A program made the translations under genes and the position numbers. 29,388 nt of DNA from Microcoleaceae cyanobacterium (lineage in GTDB: Bacteria > Cyanobacteriota > Cyanobacteriia > Cyanobacteriales > Microcoleaceae), in contig JBOFUV010000002.1 of the NCBI GenBank assembly GCA_051652765.1, forward strand, positions 1-29,388, given 5' to 3'. Positions within the stretch are counted from its first letter, which is position 1, and the number at the start of each line of letters is the position of its first letter. This document shows positions 2,676-26,575 of this stretch, piece after piece. The notes beneath the pieces are model-generated. The model was not told the origin of the DNA, made no database searches, and saw only the letters and a list, made by a program, of their open reading frames with translations.

Positions 2676-3362
2676 ATGAAATTGAACCTGAGTTCAGCCC
2701 TGCAACCGTTACTGGTACAAAGCGTTAAATTTGGCCTGATCAGCTTTGCCTTCCTTGTCTCCCCAGCTTTAGCAGATGATGCAGCAGAAGTCCGGGCAAC
2801 GTTCACAAACTATAAATCTGCAATTCTGGCGGGAGAAGGAGACGCGGCGGTTGACCAGATTAGTCAAAATACTATTGAATATTATGGCGCAATGCAAAAG
2901 CTAGCGGTTTGTGCCGATGCAGCAACGGTTAAAGCCCAGTCTATGCTCGATCGGGTACAAATTTTCTCCATGCGATTTCGAGTGCCCGCCCCAACCTTGC
3001 TGACGCTATCAGACGAGGGTGTCGTTGCCTATGGGGTAGAACAAGGATGGATTGGCAAGGAAGGCGTTATGAATATAGAACTGGGCGAAGTCACCCTAGA
3101 GAACAATGAAGCGTTTGCTGTGATCCTCCAAAATCGTCAACCTGCAGGAATTCGGTTTCGTTTTGTGAAGGAATCGGGGGACTGGAAATTGGATTTGTTG
3201 CCGATTATTGAACTGTCTAATCTTGCGTTTCAGGAATTGGCCAAACAAGAAGAAATTGAAGAAAATGAATTTATTTTTGCCTTGTTAGCCCTGTTGGAAG
3301 GTCGGGAACCCACTGAGGCAGTCTGGAACCCGATTGATCCCAAACATTCCCTGTGTCGTTAA
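2676..3362 (+). CDS. Hypothetical exported protein
   Basis: 228-aa ORF with a hydrophobic N-terminal stretch ending A-L-A|DD, resembling a signal peptide. No family recognised. Confidence 0.75.
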   Translation: MKLNLSSALQPLLVQSVKFGLISFAFLVSPALADDAAEVRATFTNYKSAILAGEGDAAVDQISQNTIEYYGAMQKLAVCADAATVKAQSMLDRVQIFSMRFRVPAPTLLTLSDEGVVAYGVEQGWIGKEGVMNIELGEVTLENNEAFAVILQNRQPAGIRFRFVKESGDWKLDLLPIIELSNLAFQELAKQEEIEENEFIFALLALLEGREPTEAVWNPIDPKHSLCR

Positions 3363-3365
3363 CGG

Positions 3366-3394
3366 TGAATCATTAATAATTCTTTAATGATTCA
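3366..3394. terminator. AT-rich hairpin between convergent genes, possible bidirectional terminator
   Basis: tgaatcattaa-N7-ttaatgattca perfect inverted repeat immediately after the 3362 stop. Confidence 0.5.
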
Positions 3395-3427
3395 TTAAAG
3401 GGTATGAAACCACTTAAACGCATTCAA

Positions 3428-4825
3428 CTAAACGCCCAAAATCAGGTGAGCCAGATTGAAATAAATCAACACGCCCAAAACATCCACCGCAGTCGTAATA
3501 AACGGAGCAGACATTAAAGCCGGATCTAAGCCCAGAGTTCGGAACAAGAAGGGCAAGGCCGATCCTGAAACAGAGGCTAAGATCGAGATGGCGACTAGGC
3601 TAATTCCCACTGACAGAGCCACAGAAAATTCCCCCGGCACAATAAAAAAGTTTGCCCAGACGGTTGCCAAGACTCCCAAAATCACCCCTAACAACGCTCC
3701 TGCCAGACCTTCCCGCCAGATCACTTCAATCGGCTTCATCCCCCGAATTTCATCAGTATTCATTCCCCGAATCACAACCGTTGAAGATTGTGCCCCCACG
3801 TTTCCCCCGGTTCCAGTCAGCAACGGGATGAAAAAAGAAAGAGCCACCACCTCTTGAATAATGTCCTGCTGAGTCTTGAGAATGGCTCCCGTGATGCTAT
3901 TGGTCAGCAGCAAAATCAACAGCCAAACCACTCGACGACGGGCAACAGTGAGCAAACTGGCCTGGAAGTAGTTGTCTCCCTGGGCTTGTACTCCACTCAA
4001 GGCATAAATATCTTCCGTAATTTCCTCCTGCAAAATATCGAGGACATCATCAACTGTAATAATCCCCACGAGACGTTGTTCACTATCTACGACCGGAACC
4101 GCCAAAAAGTCATATCGTTGAATGATGCGGGCCACCTCTTCTTGGTCAGTTCCCGTTTGCACACAAACCAAATCTCGATTCATGATCTCGCCAATGGTCT
4201 GATCCAGTTGGGCTGTGACTAAATCCCGCAAGGACAAAATCCCCGATAACCTCCGATCAGAATCGGTCACGTACAGTGAGTAGATGGTTTCTGTAGTATT
4301 CGCCAAGCTGCGAATCCGTTCCAAGCTTTGACTCACGGTGTAGTGCTCCTTCAGGGAGATATATTCGGGCGTCATAATTCGCCCTGCTGTACCGGCTTCA
4401 TAGCCCAGTAATAGAGCAGTCGCTTGGCGTTCTGAAAGGCTCAACTGAGTCACCAAGCGACGAACAACTGTTGCAGGCAGTTCATCAAAGAGTTTGGCTC
4501 GATCATCTGGAGACATCTTGTCAACAATGTCTAGCACCTCCTGTCGCTTGAACTTCTCGCAAAGGGACTGTTGGACAACAGAGTCAAGCTGTTCGTAAAC
4601 CTCGATGGCTTCATCTTTAGACAATAGCCGGAAAGCAATCACTTGCATGGTTTCCGGCAGACCTTCAATCGCCTCAGCAATATCGGGGGGCTGAACCGGA
4701 ATCAAAATTGCTTTAGCCGCCTGCAAATCTCCCTGCTCTAGAAGGACTTGAAGTTGCGATCGCACAAGCTCCCGCAATTCCTTGCGAGACATCACGCTCA
4801 GAGTTGACTTTTCAGCTTCAGTCAA
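3428..4825 (-). CDS. mgtE: Magnesium transporter MgtE
   Basis: MgtE N-domain, CBS pair (AGRIMTPEY, YDFLAVPVVD, GIITVDD), membrane motifs GGNVGAQS and DPALMSAPFITTAVD. GGAGG RBS upstream of a TTG start. Confidence 0.96.
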   Translation of the reverse strand: MTEAEKSTLSVMSRKELRELVRSQLQVLLEQGDLQAAKAILIPVQPPDIAEAIEGLPETMQVIAFRLLSKDEAIEVYEQLDSVVQQSLCEKFKRQEVLDIVDKMSPDDRAKLFDELPATVVRRLVTQLSLSERQATALLLGYEAGTAGRIMTPEYISLKEHYTVSQSLERIRSLANTTETIYSLYVTDSDRRLSGILSLRDLVTAQLDQTIGEIMNRDLVCVQTGTDQEEVARIIQRYDFLAVPVVDSEQRLVGIITVDDVLDILQEEITEDIYALSGVQAQGDNYFQASLLTVARRRVVWLLILLLTNSITGAILKTQQDIIQEVVALSFFIPLLTGTGGNVGAQSSTVVIRGMNTDEIRGMKPIEVIWREGLAGALLGVILGVLATVWANFFIVPGEFSVALSVGISLVAISILASVSGSALPFLFRTLGLDPALMSAPFITTAVDVLGVLIYFNLAHLILGV

Positions 4826-5370
4826 GGGTTGATCCTCCTACAACAACTCCTAAATCAAGTCTAGAGGGTAATGCAGCATCAACGGAGATCTTGCCAATCT
4901 TAATGTAGGTTGGTGTCAAGCTTGCAAAGCCCAATATTCTCAAATCCAAACTCATATCAACTCCACTAATGGGCATCCTGTAAGTTTTTTTTAAAAAAGC
5001 TGGTTAGGGTTCTAAGTCATTTCAAGACAATCGCTACAAAATGTGAAATTCTGTAGCCAGATGATCGAGCACTACGACTGGATTCATCCCAAATTTCAAT
5101 AGATCTTGTGACCAACTCAAGACAAAAGACCTTTTACAGAGGTGAGTTAACACCCTGCAGGGGTTAAGCCCCTTTGGCACTTGGGGTGAGATGACGTTAG
5201 CACAATAGAGAAATACTTCAGTTTAAAAAGCAAGACGTTATTCTTGTAAACTGAGTATCAAAATTAGGTAAACCTTTCAGGTAGGTTCCTATTCATCAGG
5301 GTGAGATCAAGAAGAAAGGGGCAGAAGATGCGATATCTTTGCCTGCGGTCGAGAATTCTACCTTTTTTTA

Positions 5371-7251
5371 ATGAATGACGTGAAAACGTCACACGGTTTT
5401 TTTATGCCAGTTAATAATTGGGGTGCATTTTCCTCTGAGATGGAGGAAAATAACGATTCGTTGGGGCTTGAAATGATGAGAATTGCGGAAACACAGGGGC
5501 AAAACATCGTTCAGAAATGGGAGTGGCAAGGTCAGATCAACGCCGATCAGCTTTGCCAACTGCAACTATTTGCAACGGCTGTTCACAATACAGGGGACGC
5601 GATTGTAATCACAACTAGCAATCTAGAACCTCCGGGGCCAGAGATTGTCTATGTGAATCGAGCCTTTACCCAGATCACCGGATATTTCGCAGAAGACGTT
5701 CTGGGCCAAACCCCCCGAATTTTACAGGGGCCAAAAACGGATCGACAAGTTCTGGAAACCATGAAGTGCTCTCTCCAAGAGCGGAAGGTGTTTCAAGGAG
5801 AAACCATTAACTATCGTAAAGATGGGACAGAATTTCATAATCACTGGCGCGTGGAGCCAATTTGTAGTGCTTCTGGTCAAATCACTCACTATTTGGCAAT
5901 TCAGCGAGATATCACTCACCAAAAGCAGTCTGAACATCTACTAACTGCCTGTGAGACCTCTGATCCGCTAACCCGATTGCCCAACCGTTCAATTCTGACC
6001 TATCGCCTGCAAGAAGCAATTGAAAAAACTCACTGCCACCAGGACTATCTATTTGCCTTGCTGTTCCTGGACTTAGATCACTTCAAGTTGGTCAATGATA
6101 GCTTGGGTCATCAGGCGGGAGATCAACTGCTGGTGGCGATCGCCCAACGGTTACAACAGTGTGTTCGCCCCACCGATATGATTGCCCGTTTGGGGGGAGA
6201 TGAGTTTGCCATCCTGCTGAATAATATTCGAGACTTGGCCACGGTCTCTCAGATTGCCGAGCGAATTCAGCAAAACCTGCGGAAGACTCTGCTATTGAAG
6301 GGGCACGAACTCTCAACCACCGTGAGCATTGGCATTGCCCTCAGTAGCACTGGATACGACCATCCCGAAGACTTACTACGGGATGCTGATATTGCCCTCC
6401 ATCGCGCTAAGGCCAGGGGTCGAGCCTGTTATGCCGTATTCAATAAAACTATGCACCTGCGAGTCCTAGAACGGCTGCATCTGGAAAACGATCTTCGTCG
6501 AGCCGTCGATACCCAACAACTTCAACTCCATTATCAACCGATTGTTTCGATCAAAACAGGCCGAATTGCAGGCTTTGAGGCACTCCTGCGATGGTATCAT
6601 CCTCAACGGGGAGCCATCCCTCCTGCTCAGTTTATTCCAGTGGCAGAGGAGACGGGCCTGATTCAAGAGATTGGAGAGTGGGTGTTGCGGACAGCGTGCA
6701 AGCGAGCCGGAGTTTGGGATCAGATGTTTCCCAACTCCTCCCCCTTGTTCATGAGTGTGAATCTTTCCAGCCAGCAATTGACCCAGATCAATTTAGTCGA
6801 AACCATCGCTCAAATTTTAGCTGAAACCCGATGCGATCCCAACCGTTTGAAGCTAGAGATTACAGAGAGTGCGATTACGGAAAAAGCTGACATGGCAATC
6901 TCAACTCTAAAAGAGCTGAAAGCCTTAGGAATCCGTCTGTGTATTGACGACTTTGGAACAGGTTACTCCTCCCTCAGCCGCCTGTATTCCTTTCCGATTA
7001 GTACCCTGAAAATTGATCGCTCTTTTGTTTCTGGAATTGATTTAGCAGATGGAACCACGAAAATTGTAGAAGCCATCATCGCCCTCGGCCAGAATTTGGG
7101 CATGGAGGTGATTGCAGAAGGGGTAGAAACAGAGCAACAGTTGCACGTTTTACGTCGCTTAAATTGTCAATATGCTCAAGGGTATTGGTTTGCTCGGCCC
7201 ACAACCTATCAAGAAGTGGAAGCGTTGTTAACCTCACAACCTTGGTTATAA
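5371..7251 (+). CDS. PAS-GGDEF-EAL diguanylate cyclase/phosphodiesterase
   Basis: PAS (IVYVNRAF...PRILQGP...NYRKDG), DPLT/LPNR, RxxD I-site (RPTD) before GGDEF, EAL, EITES, DDFGTGYSS, KIDRSF. Start codon uncertain (several in-frame Met). Confidence 0.94.
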   Translation: MNDVKTSHGFFMPVNNWGAFSSEMEENNDSLGLEMMRIAETQGQNIVQKWEWQGQINADQLCQLQLFATAVHNTGDAIVITTSNLEPPGPEIVYVNRAFTQITGYFAEDVLGQTPRILQGPKTDRQVLETMKCSLQERKVFQGETINYRKDGTEFHNHWRVEPICSASGQITHYLAIQRDITHQKQSEHLLTACETSDPLTRLPNRSILTYRLQEAIEKTHCHQDYLFALLFLDLDHFKLVNDSLGHQAGDQLLVAIAQRLQQCVRPTDMIARLGGDEFAILLNNIRDLATVSQIAERIQQNLRKTLLLKGHELSTTVSIGIALSSTGYDHPEDLLRDADIALHRAKARGRACYAVFNKTMHLRVLERLHLENDLRRAVDTQQLQLHYQPIVSIKTGRIAGFEALLRWYHPQRGAIPPAQFIPVAEETGLIQEIGEWVLRTACKRAGVWDQMFPNSSPLFMSVNLSSQQLTQINLVETIAQILAETRCDPNRLKLEITESAITEKADMAISTLKELKALGIRLCIDDFGTGYSSLSRLYSFPISTLKIDRSFVSGIDLADGTTKIVEAIIALGQNLGMEVIAEGVETEQQLHVLRRLNCQYAQGYWFARPTTYQEVEALLTSQPWL

Positions 7252-12858: not shown

Positions 12859-13968
12859 ATGATTAAAACCACCATTTTTCCAGGACGCTATGTTCAGGGG
12901 AAGGACGCTAGAAAAAAGCTCAGCCAAGAGTTATCTCGGTATGGAGCTAAGGGACTACTCATCTGCGATTCCTTTGTGTACGAGAAGATCCTCCCGGATT
13001 TCGAACCTTATATGCAGGATGGAATCCAGGTTGTTGTCGAAAAATTCGATGGTGAGTCTTCAGATGAAGAAATTAATCGTTTGCTCCTTGCAGTTCATCA
13101 AGCACAGGCTCATTTCATCGTTGGATTAGGGGGTGGCAAAGCCATAGATACTGCTAAGGCAGTGGCCCATGGAGCCAAACTACCCGTTGTTATTGTCCCC
13201 ACGCTTGCTGCCAGCGATGCCCCCTGTAGTGCTGTGTCTGTCATCTATACTCCCGAGGGTGAGTTCAAGCGCTACTTACTCATGCCTCAGAACCCGAATC
13301 TGGTATTGATGGACACACAGATTGTGACTAATGCACCGATACGCTTTCTGATTGCTGGCATGGGGGATGCCCTTGCCACTTGGTTTGAAGCAGAATCCTG
13401 CATGAGAAAATATGCTCCTAATATGACTGGAGACCTGGGATCTATGTCAGCCTATTCATTGGCCAAGCTGTGCTACGACACGCTGATGGAATACGGGTTA
13501 GCTGCAAAAACAGCCTGTATAAATCATGTAGTAACCCCTGCCCTAGAGCGGATTGTTGAAGCGAATACGCTGCTCAGTGGTATCGGCTTTGAGAGTGCGG
13601 GGCTAGCCGCTGCCCACGCTATCCATAACGGCATGACTGCACTTGAGCAAACTCATCCCTACTTCCACGGTGAGAAGGTTGCCTTTGGAACTCTAGCTTC
13701 GCTGTTTTTGACTGACAAGCCTACTGCAATCATCGACGAAGTTTACAGTTTCTGTGAGACAATTGGTTTGCCAACTACATTAGCTGAACTTGGACTAGGT
13801 GAAGTCAGTGATCAGGCGCTAATGAAAGTAGCCACAGCTTCATGCAAGCCGGGAGAGACTATGCACAATGAACCAACACCTGTGAATCCAGATATGGTAT
13901 TTTCGGCCCTTAAGGCAGCAGATGCAGAAGGGAAAAGCCGTCGCTCGATTCTAGCAAGTAGGTGCTGA
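12859..13968 (+). CDS. gldA: Glycerol dehydrogenase (family III metal-dependent polyol dehydrogenase)
   Basis: FPGRYVQG N-terminus, GLGGGKAIDTAK, PTLAASDAPCSA, GMGDALATWFEA, EANTLLSGIGFESAGLAAAHAIHNG, HGEKVAFG. Confidence 0.95.
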   Translation: MIKTTIFPGRYVQGKDARKKLSQELSRYGAKGLLICDSFVYEKILPDFEPYMQDGIQVVVEKFDGESSDEEINRLLLAVHQAQAHFIVGLGGGKAIDTAKAVAHGAKLPVVIVPTLAASDAPCSAVSVIYTPEGEFKRYLLMPQNPNLVLMDTQIVTNAPIRFLIAGMGDALATWFEAESCMRKYAPNMTGDLGSMSAYSLAKLCYDTLMEYGLAAKTACINHVVTPALERIVEANTLLSGIGFESAGLAAAHAIHNGMTALEQTHPYFHGEKVAFGTLASLFLTDKPTAIIDEVYSFCETIGLPTTLAELGLGEVSDQALMKVATASCKPGETMHNEPTPVNPDMVFSALKAADAEGKSRRSILASRC

Positions 13969-14078
13969 AATGCGACACGGTGCATCTCAGCAAATCGACT
14001 GGCTTGAGCAAGGGTAAGTTTTTCCTGTTGAAAGAGCATGATAGCGATTCCTTGACGTATTTCTGCCTCAGTCATGCG
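13950..14078 (-). pseudogene. UPF0175-family protein fragment
   Basis: MTEAEIRQGIAIMLFQQEKLTLAQASRFAEMHRVAFQHLLA is typical of cyanobacterial UPF0175 proteins. Both ends are missing and the fragment runs into the antisense strand of gldA. Confidence 0.7.
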
Positions 14079-14219
14079 GAACAGAGAGGTTTCTGGCTCA
14101 GTTGAGAGAGAGCTTGCACGGTCTGCACTGGCAGTTCTTTTGGCTGAGAGAAAGTAGGCGATGCTGGTCTTTTGGCAAAAACAGCAGAAGGTGATCCTAT
14201 CAGTGATGATCTCGCTTAC

Positions 14220-14410
14220 TTTGGGGAAGTGAATGCTTTGACATTTAGCCCCGATAGAACAATAGTTGCTAGTGGCGGTGACGATGGCAAAGTAAGACTG
14301 TAGGATGTAAAAAATAAAGCACAAATAAGTGAGTTATCGGGGCATGACAAGCCTGTGATGTCTATAAGCTATAGCTCCAACGGAAAATCACTAACTAGTA
14401 GCAGCAAAAT
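14220..14410 (+). pseudogene. WD40-repeat protein fragment
   Basis: FGEVNALTFSPDRTIVASGGDDGKVRL*DVKNKAQISELSGHDKPVMSISYSSNGKSLTSSS. The Trp of the WD dipeptide is a TAG at 14301. Confidence 0.85.
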
Positions 14411-14568
14411 TACCCTCATAAATAAGGGTGTGAGTCCCCAGCCCTTGGTCGCCTCCTAATCACACCGACAAACATCTCAATCAAAAGCAACAAGGAGAAT
14501 CGCAGCGATTGTGACCTACAACAAGACTTTTAAAACACCCTCTTCCCTAGATCTGCCGTGCTTGCAAA

Positions 14569-15015
14569 TTAGACAGATATTACCTGACTAGAGAGATCCT
14601 TGACCAACACCGACCACAGCCCCTCAATTTCAATAACTAGGTCAGGAGGCGGATCATTTCTCAGATCAATGTCTAACTTGCCTTGAACACGAGTTTCATT
14701 CTGAATGTAGAAACATTCATCAGCTTCCTTGCCCACTTGCTTCGGTCGCGATCGCCAAGTTGTTGACTTTAAGCCCCGGATCTCCAATCCCAATTCCTCT
14801 GAAAGAATCACGACTAACCTGGCCAACGTCCAACTGTAGGTTTCATGTTCGGGCAGCGGAGTCATGAGTTCAAGGGTTCCTTTGTAGTAGGTGAAGCGAG
14901 GGGTTGATCGCTCTGCAAAAATAGTTAAAAGTTGCTCATAAATTTCCCAACTGATATCGTGGAGAACTAGTCGAGAATTAGTTGAGTTTTGTAGTGGAGG
15001 AGTGACCTGAATCAT
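14569..15015 (-). pseudogene. Uma2 (DUF820) family endonuclease, 3'-truncated
   Basis: LHDISWE.Y...GTLELMTP.PEHE...EADECFYIQ...PPPDLVIEI, followed by unrelated sequence below about 14624. The C-terminal part is missing. Confidence 0.8.
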
Positions 15016-15129
15016 GTTGAGGGATGTCCCACTGGAATTTTTTTAAATTAAAGATGTCTTCGCAGATTCAGAATGAGATTAACTGAGATTAGGATCAAGA
15101 TCAAAGTCGGTAGGGATTGTTGCAAATTC

Positions 15130-15705
15130 TTACCAGATCAACTCAAAACTAAATACAAAACCGGGTAGGACTTCCTCGCCCGAGCCTGTAGCAGGAGAGT
15201 TTAAAATTTCAACGGCTTGTCCAGGTCGATAGATCTCAACGTTTTTCGCTTGGGTATCGATCAGCCAACCTAAACGAGTGCCATTTTCGATATATTCGGC
15301 CAGTTTCTCTTGAATTGTTGTGAGGCGATCGCTCGGAGACCGTAACTCAATAACAAAGTCGGGGCAGAGGGGTACGAACTTTTTTTGCTGTTCAGGGCTA
15401 AGAGCTTTCCAGGACTCTAGGTTCACCCAGGCTGCATCTGGCGAGCGATCCGCACCGTTGGGGAGCTTGAATCCAGTAGAGGAGTCGAAGGCAATTCCCA
15501 AATCTTGATGGTTACGGCTCCAGGCTTGCAACTGGTAAGCAATTTCAATATTCCGGTTACCCGTCTCTCCTCCGGTTGGTGTCATGATCACTACATCTCC
15601 GTTCGTATTCCGTTCAAATTTCAAGTCGCGATTGTTCTGGCAGAGTTGGAAAAATTGCTCGTCAGTTAATTCAATGGATTCCAGATTCAAGGTTAAGTTT
15701 GTCAT
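15130..15705 (-). CDS. Uma2 (DUF820) family endonuclease, intact
   Basis: FERN..G...IMTPTGGETG, FDSSTGF.LPNGADRSPDAAW, LCPDFVIELRS, EYIENG.RLGWLID. Confidence 0.93.
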   Translation of the reverse strand: MTNLTLNLESIELTDEQFFQLCQNNRDLKFERNTNGDVVIMTPTGGETGNRNIEIAYQLQAWSRNHQDLGIAFDSSTGFKLPNGADRSPDAAWVNLESWKALSPEQQKKFVPLCPDFVIELRSPSDRLTTIQEKLAEYIENGTRLGWLIDTQAKNVEIYRPGQAVEILNSPATGSGEEVLPGFVFSFELIW

Positions 15706-16189: not shown

Positions 16190-19100
16190 TTACTCAATTC
16201 CCTCAATTCGATCCTCAACCTGTTGATACAATTCTCGCAAACGATCCAGATTACTATCACTAGTTTCCCAATAACCCCGACCATTCACTTCGAGCAACGT
16301 ACTAACAATCTTGCGGAACGAATGGGGATTTAGATTCATTAACCGTTGCTGCATGGCCTCATCTTTGATGAAGGTTTCATTGGTTTCTTCATAAACCCAA
16401 TTATCAACAGCACCAGCCGTAGCACTCCAACCCGTCGTATTCACCAGGCGCTTCGACAATTCCCGCACCCCTTCGTAGCCGTGGGAGAGCATTCCCTCAT
16501 ACCACTTAGGATTCAGCATTTTCGTCCGGACATCCAACCGCACGGTTTCCGACAGAGAACGCACCTGGGCGTTTGCCGTTGTCGTATCGGCGATGTAGGA
16601 AGCTGGAGTTTTGCCATCTTGCCGCAGGCTGGAAATCACCTTCGTCGGGTCAGAATCAAAGTAGTGGGACACATCCGTTAAGCTGATTTCCGAAGAATCC
16701 AGGTTTTGGAAGGTCACTTCTGCGGTTTTTAAGGCCGTTTCAAATACCTGGCGGTTGTCGTCCATCATGCCGGGATTGTCCGAATTAAACGCAAAAGACT
16801 TGCGCTTCAAGTACATTTCCTGCAATTCTGACTCACTTTCCCAAGTGCTGTTTTCTACGGCCAGGTTCACGTTAGACGAATAGGAACCGGAAGCATTAGA
16901 GAAAATGCGAGTCGCAGCTTGCCGCAGATTCACACCCAACTCTGCTGCTTGCTCTAGGGCATGTTTGCGGACGAAGTTCATCTCCAAGGGTTCGTCGGAC
17001 TCCGCTGCCATTTTCACCGCTTTATCCAACAAGTTCATCTGGTTGATGAATAAATCCCGAAAAACTCCCGAACAATTAACCACTACATCAATTCGAGGCC
17101 GACCCAACTCTTCTAAGGAAATCAATTCCAACTTGTTGACACGACCTAAAGCATCAGGCACAGGCTTGACCCCCACCATCCACATGACTTGCGCCAGGGA
17201 CTCGCCATAGGTTTTGATGTTGTCCGTGCCCCAGAGTACAACCGCAATAGTTTCCGGGTAAGTACCGCCGTTGTCGAGGCGCTGCCGTTCCAGTAACCGT
17301 TCGACCACAATCTGCGCTGATTTCACCGCCGCCGCTGTTGGAATGGATTGAGGATCAAGGGCGTGCATATTCTTGCCCGTGGGCAAGACCAATGGGTTCC
17401 GAATTGGATCGCCACCGGGGCCAGGGAGAATGTATTCACCTTCCAAGGCCCGCAGCAAGGAACCCAATTCGTTATCCGCACAAACCTGTTGCAGACAGAA
17501 TTCCAGGTATTCAAACAGGGGCTTGAGAGCTTCTGGATCAACCTTGGTAAAACCCGATTGGTGCAACGACTCAATCCAGGGTTCCTTCTTGCCCATGTTG
17601 AAGAAGTTGAGCTTGGAGACTTTGGAAACTCGACCCTCGGCATCGGTACCTTCCTGAACCAGGGCAGAAACTGCTCCTCGTGATGCTTCGGTGATTTGCT
17701 GAAGCAGTTCCACATCTGCTAAAATCCCCCGATCATTGTTGCGGTAGAGGTCTTCAATGTCCCGCCCCAGGCTGTTGGCAATGATCCGGGGCAAGCTCAG
17801 TAGCCCTTCTTCTTCTCGATCCAAACTGGCAATGTTGACTAAAGTCGCCACAGCTTCTTCAGCAGTTGGTGGTTTACCAATGATGTGTAATCCACAGGGC
17901 AGCAGGCGAGATTCAATCTCCATCAACCGGCGGTAAACTTGACCCACCAGGGTATCCCGTTGCTCTGCAGAAAGCTCCGAGGCATCGCATTCGGGCAAAG
18001 TCACATCCTGATCTAGGTTAACCAAACGGCATTTCTCAACAATTGTGTTGACAATTTGAATACCCCGACCACTGCCTTTGAGGGATTGGTAGGAGCCGAT
18101 CAGTTCGCTGAGTTCCTGTAAACCCTTGTAGAGTCCGGCATTTTCTGCGGCAGGGGTGAGATAGGAAATCGTTTCAGCATAACTGCGGCGTTTGGCAATG
18201 GTGGCCTCACTGGGGTTGTTGGCGGCGTAGTAGTAAATGTTGGGGGTGGAGCCAATTAAGTTGTCAGGGTAACATTCTCCAGACATCCCCATTTGTTTTC
18301 CAGGCATGAACTCCAGGGAACCATGAGTCCCAAAGTGCAAGACTGCATCCGCTTGCCAGATTTGTTCTAGGTAGGTGTAGTAGGCGGCGAACCCGTGATG
18401 GGGACTGGCGGAACGGGAGAACAACAACCGCATTGGATCACCCTCATACCCAAAAGTAGGCTGCACCCCAATGAAGACGTTCCCAAATTCCTTGCCATAA
18501 ACTAGCAGGTTTTCCCCGTCCGTATTCAGGTGTCCGGGAGGTGGCCCCCAATTCTCGTTCAAGCGCTCGGAGTAAGGGGTGAGCCGTTCGTACTGCTGCA
18601 CAGACATTTTGTAGGCAATATTCAGTTCAGGACTCTGATATTGGGCCGTCGCGTCATGGATGACCTCCTGCATGAGTTTTCCGGCGGAGTCAGGCAGACC
18701 TTGAACGTCATAACCATTCTGTTGCAGGGCTTTCATCACTTCATAAATGGAGCCAAACACATCCAGATAGGCAGCGGTGCCGACATTGCCCTTGTCTGGC
18801 GGAAAACTAAAGATCGTAATCGCCACTTTTTTGTTCAATTTGGGCTTTTTGCGAAGACTAGCCCACTTCATGGCCCGCTGAGCGATCGCCTCAATTCGAT
18901 CCTGAAGGGCGATCGCTTTCCCTGTGGCCCCATCTCGACCTGAGACAATAATCGGTTCAATGGCCCCATCTAGTTCAGGAATGGCAATTTGCAGCGCCAC
19001 TTGAATCGGATGTAACCCTAAATCACTCTTTTCCCATTCCTCTGTAGTTTGAAACACCAGAGGTAAGGCCACCATGTAAGGACAATTCAACCGTTGCAAA

Positions 19101-20194
19101 GACTCAATCGCCTTGGGATGATCCTGGCGAGCAGGGCCACCTACCAGAGCAAATCCAGTCAGGGACACCATAGTATCCACCAGGGATTGAGATTGAATAC
19201 CCTTGGGGGGAGTGTCCCAAAAATATTCATCTACGGGTTTAGAAAAATCTAAGCCCCCTGCAAATACTGGGATTACCCGCGCTCCCATGGCTTCTAATTC
19301 CTGAACCATGGCAACGTAATGGGCATCATCCCCCGTCACCAGATGCGTCCGTTGCAGCACTAGCCCAATACAAACCGCTAGGGGGTCTTTTTGCTCCTCC
19401 GGAATATCGTCCCGACTGTTGTGCCAGTTGAAGTATTCCCGGGTGGTCTCAAACATTTTGGGGGCGAGGGGATGCCAGATACCCATGTCAGGATACACCA
19501 CAGGGTCAGCATACTTGGTTCCGGCAGCATTCCGCGCTGTAAATTCTGCTCCTTTGAACACATACTTGTCCGCTAGCATTAATAGGAAGTTTTCCAGGTT
19601 TTCGGAAGACCCCCCCAGCCAATACTGGAAAGACAGCATAAAGTTCCGCGCGTCCTGGGCCTTTTCCATGGGCATGTACTTCAGGACTTTGGGGAGGGTT
19701 CGCAGCAGCTTTAACATGCCGTCTTGGAAGGATGAACCGGATTGCTCCTTGCGCTTTTTCATAAATTGAGCGATCGCGCTCTTGCTCTGACCTAGTTGGG
19801 CCATGGAGAAACTGCCCATTTTGTTCAAGCGCATCACCTGAGGCATGGACGGGAAAACAACGGCAACGTCTAGGGTATCTCGATGGGGAGCAACCGCCTC
19901 AACCACTTTCTCTGCTAGGTCTTCGATAAAAATTAAAGAGGCGATAAAAACGTTGGCTTTTGCTACATCGCGCTTGAAGTCTTCGTAGTTTTCTGGGTTC
20001 CGCAGTTCTTCAATCAGGTAGCCACTAATCTCTATCGCCAAGTTTGAATTGTTGCTGTTGATGGAGAGAACAGCAGCAGATAGAGCACTCTGATATTGAG
20101 CCTCCAGAACTACATAGACAACTTTCAGCAGGGGTCTTCCTTCTAGATTGTCAGGCTTAATGTGCCTAACAGTAGGGTTAACGTAGGTGAACAT
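16190..20194 (-). CDS. chlH: Magnesium chelatase subunit H
   Basis: 1334 aa. ChlH-type N-terminus [16 protein letters not shown], plus [66 protein letters not shown]. Confidence 0.98.
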
Positions 20195-20437: not shown

Positions 20438-23400
20438 CTAGACAAGTTTTGTCGGGTGGCAGTTCTGAATCAAGTTTCGCGATAACCTGGCCCGGTTCAA
20501 AATTTCTGATTCATTGAGGGGTGTGGGCAGATGGCAAGACAAACACAGGGGAGCCAGAATTTTAGTAGGAGTCGTTAGACTTTCTGAAACGGCATAGAAC
20601 TGTCCTTTATCCAGTCTGGCAATATCCTGTCCGCTTCCCCCCCGTTGACGCAATTGTTCTTGAATCACCTCAATTGCCGCTGGGGAGTTGGCCCGTCCAT
20701 AAAACTGGGTTGAACAATTGGCGATGATGTTATGGTCAATACTCTTGGGAGCCTGGGTTGCAAAGATAATGCCTAAACCATACTTGCGGGCTTGAGCCAC
20801 AAGACGGTTCAGGCTGGCTTTACACGGTGTCGATGTCGATCCTGCGGGAGCAAAATCCTTGGCTTCATCCAGAACCAACAACCCCCGCAGAGGAGCATGA
20901 CTGGGAGCAGGATTTTTCTTGATCCAGGTAAATAGAGTCATGAACAGTTGGTTCAGAAAGTGTTGCTGGGTTTCGAGACCAGGCAGACCTACAAAGTTGA
21001 GGATGGAAACCCGAGTTTTCCCGGAGGGTTCGCCTAAGCCCAACAAAATCGCTGGGTCTAGCGCTGAACCACTCTGACGCAGGAGGGGATTATTTAAAAT
21101 TTCGGCCCTGAGATTGTCTGCCATGGCTTGAGCTTTTTTGTCGGCATCTGCAATCCCTCCACCTGCTTCAGGAGGCAGATCAGACAGTAACTCAATGAAA
21201 TCAAGCAACCGCCCTCCTCCGTGATGAGCAAAGTAAATTAGAGCTGCTTTGAGCACACCTCGTTTGAGAATTGCGGTTTGAGATCTGCCCTGGGCGACAA
21301 TGTCCTGAAGGGTGTCTCGAGCCATATCAGCCGCCTGATCCAGTTCATCCGAATCGTTGGCAACGGCGGCTAAATCCGGCAACGGCTCTAGAGTTAACGG
21401 ATTCCCAGATTCGCGTCCCGGAGTCCAGACCAAGGCTTGGCTGTGCTGATGATACCGTTCAGCTTGGGCTTGGTCTTGGGAATTCCACTCTGCTGGTGGC
21501 TGCGGCCAACGATCCCCCAGACGCGCCAAGTCATTGGCACAGTCAACTACAATGGCAGGAATCCCCAAAATCACCGCTTCCTCAACTAACCGCCTGACCA
21601 ACACTGTTTTTCCCGTACCACTCCCAGCCAGAATCACTGTGTGTTTCGTGAGATTCTGCACTGGAATCGAGACCGTTTCTTTCGTCTGTTGACCAATCAG
21701 GCGAGCTCCAATCGGGAGGAGAAATGAAGGAGATGGTTGATCTTCAGGGGCTTTATTAAGTTCAGGGGCTTTAGATTCAGAGACATTAGGTTCAGGAGCT
21801 TTAAATTCAGGAGGAGGTTGAATTTCTGACATCCTGGCCGAAATCTGAGTAGAAGTTGGTATAGTTCCCGATGGCACAGCGGCCCGGTGAGAATTAACAC
21901 TTTCTGCCTCAAATAGCCAAGTCACAGCCTTTTGAAGAAAGTCCAGTTGGGAAACAGGGCGGCGATCGCGCAGCCAAGCTTCCAAGCCAGGATCTCTGCG
22001 GTTCTGAATTTCCTGTAGGGCAACTAAGGTTCGCAACTCATCTTCAGTCGGACGAACGAACAATCCGCCCCGACGCTGAAAGTCTTGAGTCAGATTCTGG
22101 GTGGCAGTTCCGTTGGGAATTCCATAGGTGCGAACAATGATTAACCTGCGAAAACCGAGAGAACGGTCGATGCCTGAGGCTGTCAGGGCTGCTTTCAAGC
22201 GAGATTGATAGGCCGTCGCATTTGTCCGTTGCAGGGCTCGCAGGCAAAGGTGTTTCTCGCGATCGCCTTGACGATGAAAAATCGACTGAATGCGCCCATG
22301 TAACGGGGGATAACGGCCAGAAAAATGAGTTTCAATGATCACCTCTGGGTCGTCCAAGATTGGATTTTCTTTCACCAGCAACTCACAGACCATTTTGAGC
22401 AGAGTTCCTAACCCTTGCTCTTCATTATTTTCCTCTAGCAAATGACTTAACTGTGCCTGGTGTTTTGCGGTTTCAAAGATTTCATCCAGACGCTGGGTTG
22501 AGATGGTCTCGTCTAGACTGGGTTGATCCGGATCAAAATTCCTGAGTTCTGTGATCTGTTGCGTTGATAAACACCGTTCGCGATGGTTGTGGCACAGTTG
22601 TAGAATTTTTCTGGGATACTTTCCTTTGACCGCTTCAAAAAATTCAGGATGAATTGGCCAAGTTTCATACGGAGGTACAAAGTGAACCCGCTGATAGGCA
22701 TCTTGAATGCGTAACTGGATAATTTCCGCAATGGCATTTGCTGTATTCATTTCTTTTAAAATCATGGCTTCTTGAAAGCGATCTTTAAAAGACTGAACTA
22801 CTTCGCTGATGAGAATTTCCCAGGTTTTCTTCAGACATGAAACTACAATCAATGTGCGACAGGTCTGATCCCGTAAAGCCATCAATCCCCCGCCAATTCC
22901 CTCAATAATTGATCTGGAAACCCGCTGTTCTTCGGACAGATCGGTATTAGCAGCTTGGTCGGCAATAAAGTGATGTTGGCTAATAATAGAATCTAACTGA
23001 TCGAAAGCAAGAATTGTAGGGCTCCGCAAGTTCATTAGCCAGGAAAGTCCCTCTACAATCTCACTCAAACGACTCACAGAAGTTGTGGCAAATCCATAAT
23101 CTGTCTTTTGTGTTTCATCAATTCCTAAACCCTGAAGCCAGTTATATCCCACTCCTGACAGCTTGAAACTAGTAGAATTGAGCAGAAATAAAGCCCGAAC
23201 TACATCCTGAAATTTAATTGCCAATGTTCGATCAATTTTGATCAGGGTTTCAAGAATTTTGACGACACATTTGCCTATAGTCTCAAATTTAGCTGGAGCC
23301 AACTGCTGTGGGGAGACTCGAATTCTAGATCGGGTCATTAGAAAGGCTATAAGTTTTTGAAATTGGGGAATGCCATCTGCTTCAACTTCCTGCAAAGAGC

Positions 23401-23743
23401 TAAGATAGCCCTGCAAAACAGTTTGCCAAAACTGATGCACATCGGTCATATCTACCAAGATAAAAGCCGCATCGTTAACCAACGTATACTGCCGAATTGC
23501 GGCCAAAAAATGGGTTTTTCCAGCTCCAGGCTCCCCAATAATGACTCGACCTAGGGGGGAACTCGAATTCTTGGCTTGCTTCAGTTTTTCTAGATCATTC
23601 TGGATTGTTTTTCGTTCTCGTTCGTGTAAAGTTTTGACATCAGAAATTGAATCCCGCCACACACTTTTAATGTGCATTGTCCAGTCAAAGTCAATTTCTT
23701 GCAGGGCTTGGAGGGCAAGTTCTGGCTGAATTAAATCTGTCAT
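20438..23743 (-). CDS. Double P-loop ATPase: N-terminal AAA+-like domain plus C-terminal HerA/FtsK-like (DUF87-type) domain
   Basis: Walker A GEPGAGKT (aa 70-77) with ILAFDQLD (about aa 248). Second Walker A AGSGTGKT (aa 706-713), Walker B LVLDEA (about aa 959) and HerA-type ARKYGLGIIFATQ (about aa 985-997). Confidence 0.88.
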   Translation of the reverse strand: MTDLIQPELALQALQEIDFDWTMHIKSVWRDSISDVKTLHERERKTIQNDLEKLKQAKNSSSPLGRVIIGEPGAGKTHFLAAIRQYTLVNDAAFILVDMTDVHQFWQTVLQGYLSSLQEVEADGIPQFQKLIAFLMTRSRIRVSPQQLAPAKFETIGKCVVKILETLIKIDRTLAIKFQDVVRALFLLNSTSFKLSGVGYNWLQGLGIDETQKTDYGFATTSVSRLSEIVEGLSWLMNLRSPTILAFDQLDSIISQHHFIADQAANTDLSEEQRVSRSIIEGIGGGLMALRDQTCRTLIVVSCLKKTWEILISEVVQSFKDRFQEAMILKEMNTANAIAEIIQLRIQDAYQRVHFVPPYETWPIHPEFFEAVKGKYPRKILQLCHNHRERCLSTQQITELRNFDPDQPSLDETISTQRLDEIFETAKHQAQLSHLLEENNEEQGLGTLLKMVCELLVKENPILDDPEVIIETHFSGRYPPLHGRIQSIFHRQGDREKHLCLRALQRTNATAYQSRLKAALTASGIDRSLGFRRLIIVRTYGIPNGTATQNLTQDFQRRGGLFVRPTEDELRTLVALQEIQNRRDPGLEAWLRDRRPVSQLDFLQKAVTWLFEAESVNSHRAAVPSGTIPTSTQISARMSEIQPPPEFKAPEPNVSESKAPELNKAPEDQPSPSFLLPIGARLIGQQTKETVSIPVQNLTKHTVILAGSGTGKTVLVRRLVEEAVILGIPAIVVDCANDLARLGDRWPQPPAEWNSQDQAQAERYHQHSQALVWTPGRESGNPLTLEPLPDLAAVANDSDELDQAADMARDTLQDIVAQGRSQTAILKRGVLKAALIYFAHHGGGRLLDFIELLSDLPPEAGGGIADADKKAQAMADNLRAEILNNPLLRQSGSALDPAILLGLGEPSGKTRVSILNFVGLPGLETQQHFLNQLFMTLFTWIKKNPAPSHAPLRGLLVLDEAKDFAPAGSTSTPCKASLNRLVAQARKYGLGIIFATQAPKSIDHNIIANCSTQFYGRANSPAAIEVIQEQLRQRGGSGQDIARLDKGQFYAVSESLTTPTKILAPLCLSCHLPTPLNESEILNRARLSRNLIQNCHPTKLV

Positions 23744-23746
23744 TGT

Positions 23747-24445
23747 TCAATATAAGTTCAATGTATCAATATAAACAAAATACCGTTTGTCATGACCTCC
23801 CATATCGAGGGCTGCCTGCTCATCCTCAGGGCCTATACTCCTGGGATCTTCCATGGACATCAGGGATAATTTTCCAGCACTCTGCATTCGGCGTAATTCT
23901 TGATCAATTTCATCGCGGGGGCAATCTTGCAACTGTTGACGGAGCTTGGATAATCGCAGGCCAATTTCAGAATTTTGATTCCCCAGCTCTCGGTAAACTT
24001 TCAAAATTCTGGCTTCAAGCGGCTCGGATAGATTCAGGGGGTGCTCTAAGTGTTCTAACGTCTCTGAATTCTTCGAGTGATCTCGGATTTGCTCCGAGGG
24101 TTTAGAGGTCTCTGGCTGTTGTCTCAGGACTTCTGCTAGAGAAATGTTATGAGATTTCAAATGGGTTCCCAGTTTAATCAGTAATGCTTGTAAAGGCTCT
24201 ACGGCCAACTGAGATTTGGATAACGTCACCCCATAATTTTCTACAGCCCAATCCCAGGCCCGATCAGTTAAGACGATATGCATAGATCGCGATCGCTTTT
24301 CTAGGGTAATCAATCCTGCGTGTTCAAGGGGCTTGCGTTCAGCTGGACTCAGATTTGGCTTGACTTTAGAAATTGCAGGTTCTTCTCCTGTGATTAACAG
24401 GTTCCATAGCGCTAAAGCTTGCTTCGGAGTGGACTGAAAGCTCAT
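23747..24445 (-). CDS. Hypothetical protein, probably two winged-helix-like domains
   Basis: 232-aa ORF, 3 bp from the ATPase start. Patterns LEHAGLITLEKR...IVLTDRAWDW and LRLSKLRQQL..PRDEIDQELRRMQ.AGKLSL are wHTH-like (inference). Confidence 0.75.
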   Translation of the reverse strand: MSFQSTPKQALALWNLLITGEEPAISKVKPNLSPAERKPLEHAGLITLEKRSRSMHIVLTDRAWDWAVENYGVTLSKSQLAVEPLQALLIKLGTHLKSHNISLAEVLRQQPETSKPSEQIRDHSKNSETLEHLEHPLNLSEPLEARILKVYRELGNQNSEIGLRLSKLRQQLQDCPRDEIDQELRRMQSAGKLSLMSMEDPRSIGPEDEQAALDMGGHDKRYFVYIDTLNLY

Positions 24446-24454
24446 GACGACTTC

Positions 24455-25678
24455 CTAGGTTCTGAACGGTTGACTGCGACGAAACTTTACAACTTCACGA
24501 ATTTTGTTGAGGGCGATCTCAACATCATTCACCACTTCCTGATGGGGCAGTCGGAGCACAAGATACCCACTGATTAATAATTCATAATCCCGATGGCGAT
24601 CCTCAGTAAAGGCAAAGAGAAGGGAGTGATGCCGATAGCCATCAATTTCCACTACCACCTTACCATCTGACCAGAGCAAATCAACCCAATACCATCGCCC
24701 ACAGCAGGTTTGCACCCGTTGATTGAATCCAAAAAGTTCGGCCAACTCACCATCCCGAGACAAGGATTGCGCCAACAGTTGCTCCCCCGGACTACAGGGA
24801 TGAGGTCTACCTTGGATCGGCCAAAGCAGATGACGAGATTCTTCAAGGGTTTCTGGGTTAACGGTTTCTGAGTTAAGCGTTTTTGAGTTAAGAGTTACTG
24901 GGTTAACAGTTACAGGCTCAAGGCTTCCTGGTTTAACGGTTTCTGGGTTAACAGTTTCTGAGTGAGCGGTTTCTGGGTTAAGGATTGGTTCAACGGTTCC
25001 TAAGTTGGGTCTTGAAAAGTCCGTTGCTGCAAGGTTTGACCCTTGGGAAGAGAGAGAAATTGCACCGTACCGCACAGAATCCAATTCTGAACAGTTTGAT
25101 AGTTCCTTTGGAATCAGAACCGCAATACTTGCACCTGTTGATTGCGCCAACCAAGTGGCGGCCTGAGCAAAACTGAGGAGTTTATGGGGTTGAGGATGGC
25201 GATCGCCCATTGCCAAAAGGATCACCAGACTAAACGGGTCAATTGCCAAGGCCAGTTGAGCAACCTGAACCGTTCGAGGAAAATTCGGAAAAATCGGCAA
25301 CTGATTCATTTGACAAGCCTTTACCGCCGCTTTCAGCCAAGGGATAGAGGCATTCTGCCGAGTTGTAGGTAACTCCTGAAGCTTGAAGTGATTGAGCAGA
25401 TCGTCTTCCAGGAGGCTATTGTCCAAGAAAGGCGCTGTAACCGCTTGCCCATACCAGAATGGCCAGAGCCTAAGGGCTGCCTGAGCTAGGGCTTGTAGCA
25501 ATTCTTCTAAAAGAACTTTATGATTGGGCAGAACGTCCCAAGTCTGAATCATGCCCTTTCCCTGATCCAAGTTCGCAAGTTCAGCAACTTCCAGGGAGGC
25601 GATGACTTCATCCACCTCGGTACAGAGAAATGCTCTTACGTCACCGGCGGGAATTTGAGACAGAAACTGACTCAACAT
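24455..25678 (-). CDS. DUF559/Vsr-like endonuclease domain protein with long uncharacterised N-terminus
   Basis: C-terminal SPGEQLL...FNQRV...WVDLLW...VVEIDGYRHH...DRHRDYELLISGYLVLR (D333, E344). Confidence 0.85.
   Translation of the reverse strand: MLSQFLSQIPAGDVRAFLCTEVDEVIASLEVAELANLDQGKGMIQTWDVLPNHKVLLEELLQALAQAALRLWPFWYGQAVTAPFLDNSLLEDDLLNHFKLQELPTTRQNASIPWLKAAVKACQMNQLPIFPNFPRTVQVAQLALAIDPFSLVILLAMGDRHPQPHKLLSFAQAATWLAQSTGASIAVLIPKELSNCSELDSVRYGAISLSSQGSNLAATDFSRPNLGTVEPILNPETAHSETVNPETVKPGSLEPVTVNPVTLNSKTLNSETVNPETLEESRHLLWPIQGRPHPCSPGEQLLAQSLSRDGELAELFGFNQRVQTCCGRWYWVDLLWSDGKVVVEIDGYRHHSLLFAFTEDRHRDYELLISGYLVLRLPHQEVVNDVEIALNKIREVVKFRRSQPFRT
24846..24980 (-). repeat. 9 x 15-bp degenerate tandem repeat encoding a pentapeptide (NPETV-like) linker
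   Basis: Units such as acggtttctgggtta and acggtttctgagtta recur with exact 15-bp period on the + strand. Confidence 0.9.
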
Positions 25679-25684
25679 TGAAGA

Positions 25685-26575
25685 TTAAGGGGAAATCTGG
25701 GTTGGGTGAGTGGACTTGAGTTCATTGAGGCGAGCCACCAACGCTGGATCTAAGTCAGGCACCGGCAGGTGTTTAATTTCCCAAACCTTTAACAGGATCA
25801 GGTATTCATAAAACGCCTGCAAGGTACACCAGGTAAAACCCGCCCGACCATCCAGCCACCCCCCTAAAAACACATACATGTAAGTAAATCGGACAATGGG
25901 CCGGAGCGGTACTCTCAACGACAAATCCTTCAACGCCCGTCGCCGTTCAACTTCTGAGCGTCCCAACAGTAACTCTTGCCAATTGACTGTGCCTGACTCT
26001 AGCTGTTTTACTGTTTCAATGGCTTCATCCGTAGAGTAACGGTTGTGTTTCTCTAGCCAGCGGGCCATGCCTTTTCCGCAGGTGTAGTGAGGATAGGTTT
26101 CCTTGAGAAAACTCGTGGGGCCATTTAGTACCTCTCGTTCCGTGTGGCCGTAGTCCTCAAACCAAACCTGATCCTTGCGAAAGAGCCGCATTTGATAGCG
26201 AGGATACTGGGTGCTGTGACGAATCCACTGCCCCATAAACATGACCCGTTCGGCTGCGTAGTAACCAATGATCTCTTGACTCTGAATGGCCTCCAGACAT
26301 TCGGCAAACAAGTCCGGAGTCATTCGTTCATCAGCCTCCAAAATGTAAACCCAATCATGTTGGGCTGGAACTTCCTGCAACATCCAAGTCCGTTGACGAC
26401 CGTGGCTCTCAAAGCGATGTTGCACGACTTGAACGGGATAGCTTTGGGCAATCTCAACAGTGCGATCGCTGCTAAAAGAGTCCACCACAATCACATCATC
26501 CGATTGCAATGCTGACTCAATGCAGGCGGCAATGTCAAGTTCTTCGTTGTAGGTCAGGATATAGACTGAGAGCAT
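25685..26575 (-). CDS. Glycosyltransferase family 2 (possibly hps-associated, given its position downstream of the hpsJ-like gene)
   Basis: SVYILTYNEE, VVDSFSSDRT, LEADER (DxD-like), WLEKHNRYS, GGWLDGRAG. Confidence 0.9.
   Translation of the reverse strand: MLSVYILTYNEELDIAACIESALQSDDVIVVDSFSSDRTVEIAQSYPVQVVQHRFESHGRQRTWMLQEVPAQHDWVYILEADERMTPDLFAECLEAIQSQEIIGYYAAERVMFMGQWIRHSTQYPRYQMRLFRKDQVWFEDYGHTEREVLNGPTSFLKETYPHYTCGKGMARWLEKHNRYSTDEAIETVKQLESGTVNWQELLLGRSEVERRRALKDLSLRVPLRPIVRFTYMYVFLGGWLDGRAGFTWCTLQAFYEYLILLKVWEIKHLPVPDLDPALVARLNELKSTHPTQISP

Follow-up and report, generated by a model that had tools for sequence, protein, structure and literature searches.

What does a compact three-gene cassette do for its host when it joins a nuclease, a winged-helix protein, and a double ATPase? 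The question is raised by a contig from a Microcoleaceae cyanobacterium (GenBank assembly GCA_051652765.1, contig JBOFUV010000002.1, positions 1 to 29,388 of the forward strand; this whole stretch of 29,388 nucleotides [nt] is called the window below), in which genes A, B, and C occupy positions 20438 to 25678 (5.2 kb, all on the minus strand). An original prediction had put the cassette forward as an undescribed defense system. Here, we report that the three genes form a real, widely conserved unit and that, judged by their domains, they appear to be a further member of a predicted, experimentally unverified capture class of a kind already in print. We consider it probable that the cassette is a translationally coupled accessory module of this class, serving a modification-independent, restriction-type defense against invader DNA.

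The coordinates and junction sequences agree exactly with the three co-oriented genes and the gaps of 9 and 3 bp first proposed for the locus. At the A-B junction, a TAG stop is followed by 9 nt and an ATG, with a Shine-Dalgarno-like motif (AGGAAG) overlapping the stop; at the B-C junction, a TGA is followed by 3 nt and an ATG. These gaps point to tight coupling, and in other loci the regions matched by tblastn for the three genes likewise lie close together or abut.

A genome scan yielded 40 loci with a relative of C, 31 of which were evaluable (C start plus at least 1.9 kb upstream) and span at least seven phyla. B lay directly upstream of C in all 31, and the full A-B-C order was found in 28, the remaining 3 having B-C without A. 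When 519 open reading frames (ORFs) from the loci and the window were clustered, A, B, and C alone recurred; the next family, histidine-kinase-like, occurred in 7 loci. Conservation of the triplet, proposed as a check when the locus was first described, was thus borne out. Hosts include Cyanobacteriota, Chloroflexota, Thermodesulfobacteriota, Myxococcota, Planctomycetota, Verrucomicrobiota, and Actinomycetota, with one Pseudomonadota bin, and full-length relatives of C number at least 120 (43 to 64% identity). Across the 28 complete loci, median best-segment identity to the window was highest for C (50.9%), against 40.1% for B and 38.4% for A, the two faster-changing genes. A candidate B-C fusion in one locus (L047) was rejected, its ORF of 1340 amino acids (aa) being a high-GC over-extension in another frame than the B match.

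Closer to the source genome, 41 genomes were searched for matches reaching across both halves of C. Only the genome of the window itself had one, and the 40 relatives, two congeners among them, had none; this absence of full-length C marks the cassette as an accessory unit. Both congeners and one genome of the same family (L055, L056, and L057) keep the gene pair P0006-GT2, GT2 being the glycosyltransferase next to the cassette. In the congeners, the pair has 77 to 84% protein identity. Other genes follow GT2 in these genomes: an aminotransferase in G002 and, in the congener G001, a 590-aa protein that overlaps GT2 by 4 nt and has no Pfam or PADLOC match. The gene chlH, which lies on the far side of the cassette in the window, fell outside the stretches fetched from the congeners. 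With P0006-GT2 kept and different genes after GT2, the cassette sits at a synteny break.

Protein A has two domains in its AlphaFold2 (AF2) model (predicted local distance difference test [pLDDT], 81.6), separated by a disordered stretch at residues 213 to 280 (pLDDT below 50 at 213 to 249 and 261 to 280). The C-terminal domain had been described as a DUF559 nuclease of Vsr-like fold, and the searches agreed: Pfam DUF559 (PF04480) matched residues 314 to 397 (2.2e-9), a profile of 29 A orthologues matched PDB entry 3hrl (1.2e-7) and the catalytic domain of I-Bth0305I (0.016), and VIA-align placed residues 282 to 402 on 3hrl (Z 12.9; root mean square deviation [rmsd], 2.0; 94 aligned), with Z 12.4 to I-Bth0305I (3r3p) and Z 10.1 to Vsr (1cw0). 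D333 and E344, named beforehand for mutation, are invariant columns in the 29 sequences, together with D346, H351, D360, R361, R363, D364, and Y365. From these invariant acidic and histidine residues, the enzyme is probably active.

The N-terminal domain of A (residues 1 to 212) matched Drosophila ORC chain 7jgr_C (VIA-align Z 9.4; 151 aligned; rmsd, 3.5), RdrA (8fnt_B, Z 9.0), TnsC (7m99_A, Z 8.6), and Cdc6 (1fnn_B, Z 8.2). These values lie just above the tool's "common" level, so an AAA+ fold of the ORC/Cdc6, TnsC, and STAND kinds is likely, not certain, for the modelled domain. The strand at residues 14 to 19, after which a P-loop would come, is followed by TEVDEV, and the invariant columns are Trp, Pro, and Leu alone, with no GKT or DE motif; together these point to a fold like that of an ATPase, its nucleotide site missing. 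A profile-profile comparison with C gave no relation (probability 0.3). A profile of the domain found 428 representatives (50% identity) at E ≤ 1e-3 and 328 at 1e-10. Among the best 150, the same nuclease domain is present on 134, which indicates that the fusion is fixed; 12 of the other 16 are at most 260 aa long and possibly fragments, and the four longer ones had no Pfam match, so that no alternative effector was seen on this domain. All 7 proteins returned by a word-based search with residues 1 to 212 carry DUF559. In the linker, a repeat insertion is found in the window's copy alone among the 29 orthologues (alignment A1).

Protein C had been called an AAA+/HerA double ATPase, and two invariant P-loops, with DUF87 above its cut-off, bear this out. 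By its motifs, the N-terminal half certainly holds a P-loop AAA+ domain: invariant in 47 sequences are G70-x2-G73-x-G75-K76-T77, the Walker B region D248-Q249-x-D251, R322, and R345. Family matches to this half were Pfam AAA_16 on residues 44 to 181 (1.3e-6; 29.5 bits, below the 32.6 cut-off), BrxC_BrxD (Pfam, 0.0018), and, weakly, Hda/DnaA. Q249 is an invariant Gln at the usual position of the AAA+ catalytic Glu. Walker B mutants are generally known for slow hydrolysis; by this analogy, the invariant Gln suggests slow hydrolysis also in C, and its first ATPase may work as a slow switch, not as a motor.

The middle domain of C is conserved (R484, R495, E496, A519, G524, I525, R532, G545, G560, and W590 are invariant in alignment A4). 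It had a Pfam family in no more than 1 of 32 members, no credible PDB match, no profile match to A (probability 0.3), and, in the protein Atlas, matches to unnamed clusters alone. After a variable linker follows the second ATPase, matched by Pfam DUF87/HerA on residues 683 to 820 (4.8e-9; 37.1 bits, cut-off 23.2), Pfam HerA_C (3.4e-5), and HerA chains in the PDB (8xau, 1e-10; 4d2i, Sulfolobus HerA, 7.1e-10). Of the HerA core, the PDB and PADLOC HerA models cover the C-terminal portion alone, about residues 900 to 1065. Invariant here, again in the 47 sequences, are G709-x-G711-K712-T713, D959-E960, R986-K987, and Q997; K76 and K712 are the Walker A lysines that had been named for mutation.

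Related cyanobacteria also encode standalone proteins of 610 to 690 aa that match about residues 25 to 606 of C at 21 to 26% identity, which suggests an older unit of AAA+ and middle domain onto which the HerA/FtsK domain was fused later. Such paralogues of the N-terminal module were seen in many related cyanobacteria (L002 to L010) and once as a tandem pair (G026:C89:16148-17167 and 18696-19952), recalling the paired Orc/CDC6 genes described in the available text of PMC10853773, the source of the capture class.

Protein B had no significant family match in Pfam, PADLOC 2023, or NCBIfam. Its earlier description as a winged helix-turn-helix (wHTH) protein is supported by the AF2 model (pLDDT 83.4; low confidence at residues 114 to 134), which shows two winged-helix domains, and structure searches (Foldseek, VIA-align) returned winged-helix proteins alone (all 50 VIA rows). 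Residues 1 to 74/90 matched the MarR-type structures 4xrf/3s2w (Z 9.2), and residues 138 to 232 matched IdeR (2isy, Z 8.2), with kleisin-type and other winged helices at about 8.

The domain inventory fits a class of neighborhoods that Rakesh, Aravind, and Krishnan (Nucleic Acids Research 2024; PMC10853773) predicted computationally under the term "Orc/CDC6 + HerA/FtsK capture." As set out in the available parts of that article, the class has an Orc/CDC6 ATPase whose core is separated from its wHTH by an inactive restriction endonuclease (REase), together with an active REase and a HerA/FtsK ATPase; a subset has an extra, fast-evolving protein of 2 to 4 wHTH, and domain fusions vary. The ATPase is proposed there to localize the apparatus and HerA/FtsK to intercept the invader, in an anti-invader role, and the loci are termed "mobile gene neighborhoods." A 2026 BREX paper from the same group (PMC12839542), in the part of its text available, restates the class and treats BrxB as an inactive STAND domain.

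Three of the five core features tested were found in the cassette: an active REase-fold nuclease (A, residues 282 to 407), a HerA/FtsK ATPase (second half of C), and, as in the subset, a separate wHTH protein (B, modelled as two winged helices). For the Orc/CDC6 ATPase, C offers an invariant Walker A motif and the AAA_16 and BrxC_BrxD matches given above; for the inactive REase, the conserved middle domain of C sits where the available description of the class has "inactive REase + wHTH." The cassette also has features of its own. The accessible text of PMC10853773 names no Vsr/DUF559 nuclease, speaking of "two distinct families, one also in AbiJ," and does not mention a P-loop-less AAA+-like domain on the nuclease; the invariant Walker B Gln of C is not seen in the available text of either paper. 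Since the cassette fits this class, the claim that it is undescribed and matches no named system was too strong.

We infer a complex directed at incoming foreign DNA, for example from phages, plasmids, or conjugation. The AAA+ module of C and its middle domain would, in the ATP-bound state, bind and mark the DNA, and the HerA/FtsK domain would form a ring pumping double-stranded DNA. B, with its two flexibly linked and faster-changing winged helices, would act in DNA or target recognition or in regulation. The Vsr/DUF559-fold nuclease of A would be the effector cutting captured DNA, and the N-terminal domain of A, its nucleotide site lost, would tether A to the machine, probably as a docking module only; this last proposal follows an idea put forward for BrxB-type inactive STAND domains in BREX. 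A complex prediction of A (residues 1 to 212) with C (residues 1 to 625) scored 0.00 in two runs made with no control runs and says nothing either way. The nuclease-adaptor-motor scheme of the original prediction thus keeps its parts (nuclease, winged-helix protein, and double ATPase in one conserved unit) and gives up its novelty.

Comparison with named systems had been proposed as a further check, and no PADLOC 2023 system was matched. A and B had no match to PADLOC 2023 or NCBIfam antiphage models; the best PADLOC match of C was to mad8 of MADS (residues 688 to 1061, 1.8e-26). The mad8 (PDLC04140) and mad3 models also score 1e-13 to 1e-29 on ABC-transporter ATPases near other copies of the cassette (L016:6857-7774 and L030:12671-13375), so a mad8 match alone is no sign of MADS. 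MADS (mad1 to mad8) is an eight-gene operon with an N6-methyltransferase and a kinase, a layout that the cassette does not share, and it was rejected: the mad8 model is nonspecific, and no other Mad component and no methyltransferase were found. The available main text of the MADS preprint gives no description of mad8.

Several systems resemble the cassette in logic. BREX, according to the available text of PMC12839542, likewise pairs an active ORC/Cdc6-like ATPase (BrxC) with a partner of dead AAA+/STAND fold (BrxB) and with winged-helix binders. BREX also has PglZ, the PglX methyltransferase, and BrxL, whereas in the cassette the inactive domain is fused to the nuclease; with BrxC_BrxD at 0.0018 on C, the resemblance is one of logic, not membership. 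Sir2-HerA, DUF4297-HerA, and HerA-NurA, like the cassette, join a HerA-family P-loop ATPase to an effector. The cassette differs in that its effector is not Sir2, DUF4297, or NurA, another ATPase precedes the HerA domain in the same chain, and the fixed third member is a winged-helix protein; NCBIfam HerA_antiphage scored 32.7 against a cut-off of 800 and helicase_HerA 27 against 970, and no NurA family was found in A or B. DndFGH/DptFGH, in the available account of PMC10853773, has a REase-fold nuclease, the multi-wHTH DndG, and the HerA/FtsK ATPase DndH, the same combination of activities as in the cassette. Unlike DndFGH, the cassette shows no DndF kinase-like protein and no Dnd modification genes, and in PADLOC, it matched DndH at 0.026 and neither DndF nor DndG. 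Vsr is a short enzyme of one domain that is paired with the Dcm methyltransferase. A has the nuclease fold in common with it, but carries an extra N-terminal part of 280 residues, the DUF559 equivalog scored 20.4 against 218, and no dcm lies nearby.

Several observations weigh against the capture-class defense reading. The cassette contains no methyltransferase or other visible self-protection. The placement of the first ATPase of C in the ORC/Cdc6 clade draws on sub-threshold sequence matches, and its middle domain, the candidate for the inactive REase, has no Pfam, PDB, or profile match. A is missing from three loci (L014, L031, and L047) by six-frame profile search too, and in L031, a pair of ORFs (566 and 520 aa) also takes the place of a single C. 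A quick tree of C from 30 of the 41 sources (11 fragmentary, split, or over-extended rows left out) follows phyla, with 6 label changes, the minimum possible being 6; it thus gives no sign of transfer between phyla, and gain and loss of the cassette seem to occur mostly within them. In the window, the flanks are housekeeping genes, with no mobility gene among the ORFs scanned. No experimental study of such a cassette was found in the literature, PMC10853773 and PMC12839542 being computational alone.

The genomic neighborhood adds to these points. Among 150 of the 165 genes lying within three per side of the cassette at 35 loci, scanned with Pfam and PADLOC, most are ordinary metabolic, signalling, or transport genes, and named defense systems adjoin the cassette in only 3 of the 35 loci: L037 has BREX PglZ and BrxA with Old/GajA-like genes, L038 has type IV (Mrr-type) and type IIG restriction, and L032 has a DruE-like gene. 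Six further loci (L016, L025, L029, L040, L042, and L044) have PADLOC candidate families or, in L029, a TIR protein, and a terminase is among the neighbors in L011. These named systems, the TIR protein, HipA in L039, and VapBC in L058 speak for a defense role. Defense-island context, which had been proposed as a check, is nevertheless weak overall. L037 is the clearest defense-island context among the loci. There (2948 to 6270 and 13882 to 15632), the cassette lies between BREX genes (PglZ, BrxA, and a PDC-S62-like gene) and a seemingly split Old/GajA-like ATPase-TOPRIM gene, and a second C fragment of 128 aa lies downstream.

The missing self-protection could be accounted for by a variant of the capture-class reading that we regard as unlikely, if still worth stating. 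The ORC/STAND-like domain of A would mimic an ATPase subunit and slot into or cap the oligomer of the ORC-like ATPase of C, which with its invariant Walker B Gln would act as a slow ATP switch; an initiator-like loader would place pump and nuclease on foreign DNA, and self would be told from non-self by the site at which the loader assembles (DNA ends, entering or replicating DNA), not by methylation.

The same gap would also suit an abortive-infection or toxin mechanism, in which B and C restrain A until, once triggered, A degrades the cell's own DNA and kills the infected cell. Abortive infection is the mode of action of HerA-effector systems such as Sir2-HerA, a precedent for this idea, and two loci have toxin-antitoxin genes next to the cassette (L039 with HipA and L058 with VapBC). 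A DNA pump and two winged-helix sets better suit the capture of particular DNA; the data do not separate the two readings, and we hold the toxin mechanism to be improbable.

A selfish or mobile-element function, in which the module would move, partition, or maintain an element by analogy with Tn7-type transposition (REase-fold TnsA and ORC-like AAA+ TnsC) or with the FtsK/TraD-type DNA pumps of conjugative elements, seems to us quite improbable. It would fit the resemblance of the A N-terminal domain to TnsC among AAA+ proteins (Z 8.6, 8.2, and 8.0), the weak matches of C to TrwB/TraD/VirB4 coupling ATPases (2.2e-4 to 7e-3), the patchy occurrence among close relatives, and the term "mobile gene neighborhoods" in the available text of PMC10853773. 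Set against these, genes for a transposase, integrase, relaxase, or secretion do not recur next to the cassette, no terminal repeats were found in the window, and the three genes are bounded exactly, with different flanks in every locus. A conjugation coupling-protein role was dropped as no transfer genes were found. Phage and plasmid records speak the same way: no relative was found in 50,697 phage records or in IMG/VR contigs, and 3 of 72,556 plasmid records matched, one with a ribosomal-protein operon and another 11.85 Mb long. In the Tsukamurella record labelled as a plasmid (L058; NZ_LR134464.1, 174913 to 190146), the triplet, annotated as DUF559, hypothetical, and DUF87, lies between rplN and rpsQ in company with VapBC, a DEAD/DEAH helicase, and small unknown genes; placed inside a ribosomal-protein gene cluster, it makes the record look like a piece of chromosome.

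A housekeeping repair or recombination module, a counterpart of HerA-NurA end resection or of Vsr-type mismatch nicking, is very improbable: the Sulfolobus HerA among the best PDB matches of C, the Vsr-fold nuclease of A, and the housekeeping flanks would allow it, but the cassette is absent from 40 of 40 relatives, congeners included, which is not the pattern of a core repair function, none of the partners NurA, Mre11, Rad50, and Dcm was found among the proteins scanned, and the NCBIfam HerA repair models (28.1 against 800, 27 against 970) and the DUF559 equivalog fall far below their cut-offs.

The features of the window are collected in Table 1. Pfam identified both flanking genes as previously named, GT2 and chlH, and we add that GT2 is co-oriented with the cassette. 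Its TAA stop lies 6 nt (25679 to 25684) ahead of the A ATG in the same orientation, so that read-through from GT2 is possible, and the cassette may be transcribed in this way. Promoter-like sites (8 found, 7.1 expected) and terminator-like sites (7 found, 7.3 expected) occur at chance level. The reported lack of an integrase and of flanking repeats was confirmed, with no integrase or transposase family among the 13 window ORFs outside the cassette (21 proteins scanned in all) and no direct or inverted repeat of at least 16 nt bracketing the cassette in the window. The GC content of the cassette (0.42 to 0.52) is inside the window's own range. No RNA run was listed as containing the cassette, and a freshwater-metagenome DNA run (n = 1) had a 0.05 share of words. 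About 0.5 kb past chlH lies a pair of Uma2-family genes, and Uma2 genes stand near the cassette also in L016, L025, L030, and L044; the left end of the window holds a CHAT-domain protein and an RTX repeat protein.

Table 1. Features of the cassette and its surroundings (window coordinates)
Feature	Coordinates	Strand	Length	Basis or remark
Gene A, putative two-domain effector	24455-25678	-	407 aa	ORF list and translation; pseudo-ATPase domain, linker, Vsr/DUF559-fold nuclease
A residues 1-212, likely AAA+/ORC/STAND-like alpha/beta domain without Walker A/B	25043-25678	-		VIA-align, alignment
A linker, 15-bp tandem repeat	24848-24981	-	~9 copies	Repeat scan; pentapeptide repeats
A residues 282-407, Vsr/DUF559-fold endonuclease	24458-24835	-		Pfam, PDB profile, VIA-align
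Gene B, predicted winged-helix domains at ~1-100 and 138-232 with disordered linker	23747-24445	-	232 aa	ORF list and translation; AF2 model
Gene C, double ATPase	20438-23743	-	1101 aa	ORF list and translation; relatives
C ~40-395, N-terminal AAA+ ATPase	22559-23626	-		AAA_16, Walker motifs
C ~435-620, conserved middle domain	21884-22441	-		Alignment A4
C ~621-675, variable Pro/Ser-rich linker	21719-21883	-		A4 columns 250-368 unconserved
Repeat in C linker	21756-21813	-	15 bp x 3.9	Encodes short peptide repeats
C 676-1101, HerA/FtsK-type P-loop translocase domain	20441-21718	-		Pfam, PDB profile
GT2 glycosyltransferase, upstream flank	25685-26575	-		Pfam
chlH (CobN/Mg-chelatase), downstream flank	16190-20194			Pfam, E = 0
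Uma2-family gene pair (putative restriction endonuclease)	14569-15015 and 15130-15705
CHAT-domain (caspase-like protease) protein and RTX calcium-binding repeat protein	327-1625 and 1907-2614

If the cassette defends its host, the predicted Orc/CDC6 + HerA/FtsK capture class would gain its first example open to bench work. The family is large, with the 428 representatives counted for the A N-terminal domain alone, and ranges from cyanobacteria to planctomycetes, myxobacteria, and actinomycetes. The proposed working, if true, would show two different ring ATPases in one chain cooperating with a nuclease and would show how self DNA is spared in a system that lacks a methyltransferase. The P-loop-less AAA+ domain on A, taken with BrxB in BREX, may reflect a wider habit among defense systems of using dead ATPase domains as docking pieces. 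Should the cassette prove not to defend, it would still be a widespread DNA-handling module whose purpose is worth learning.

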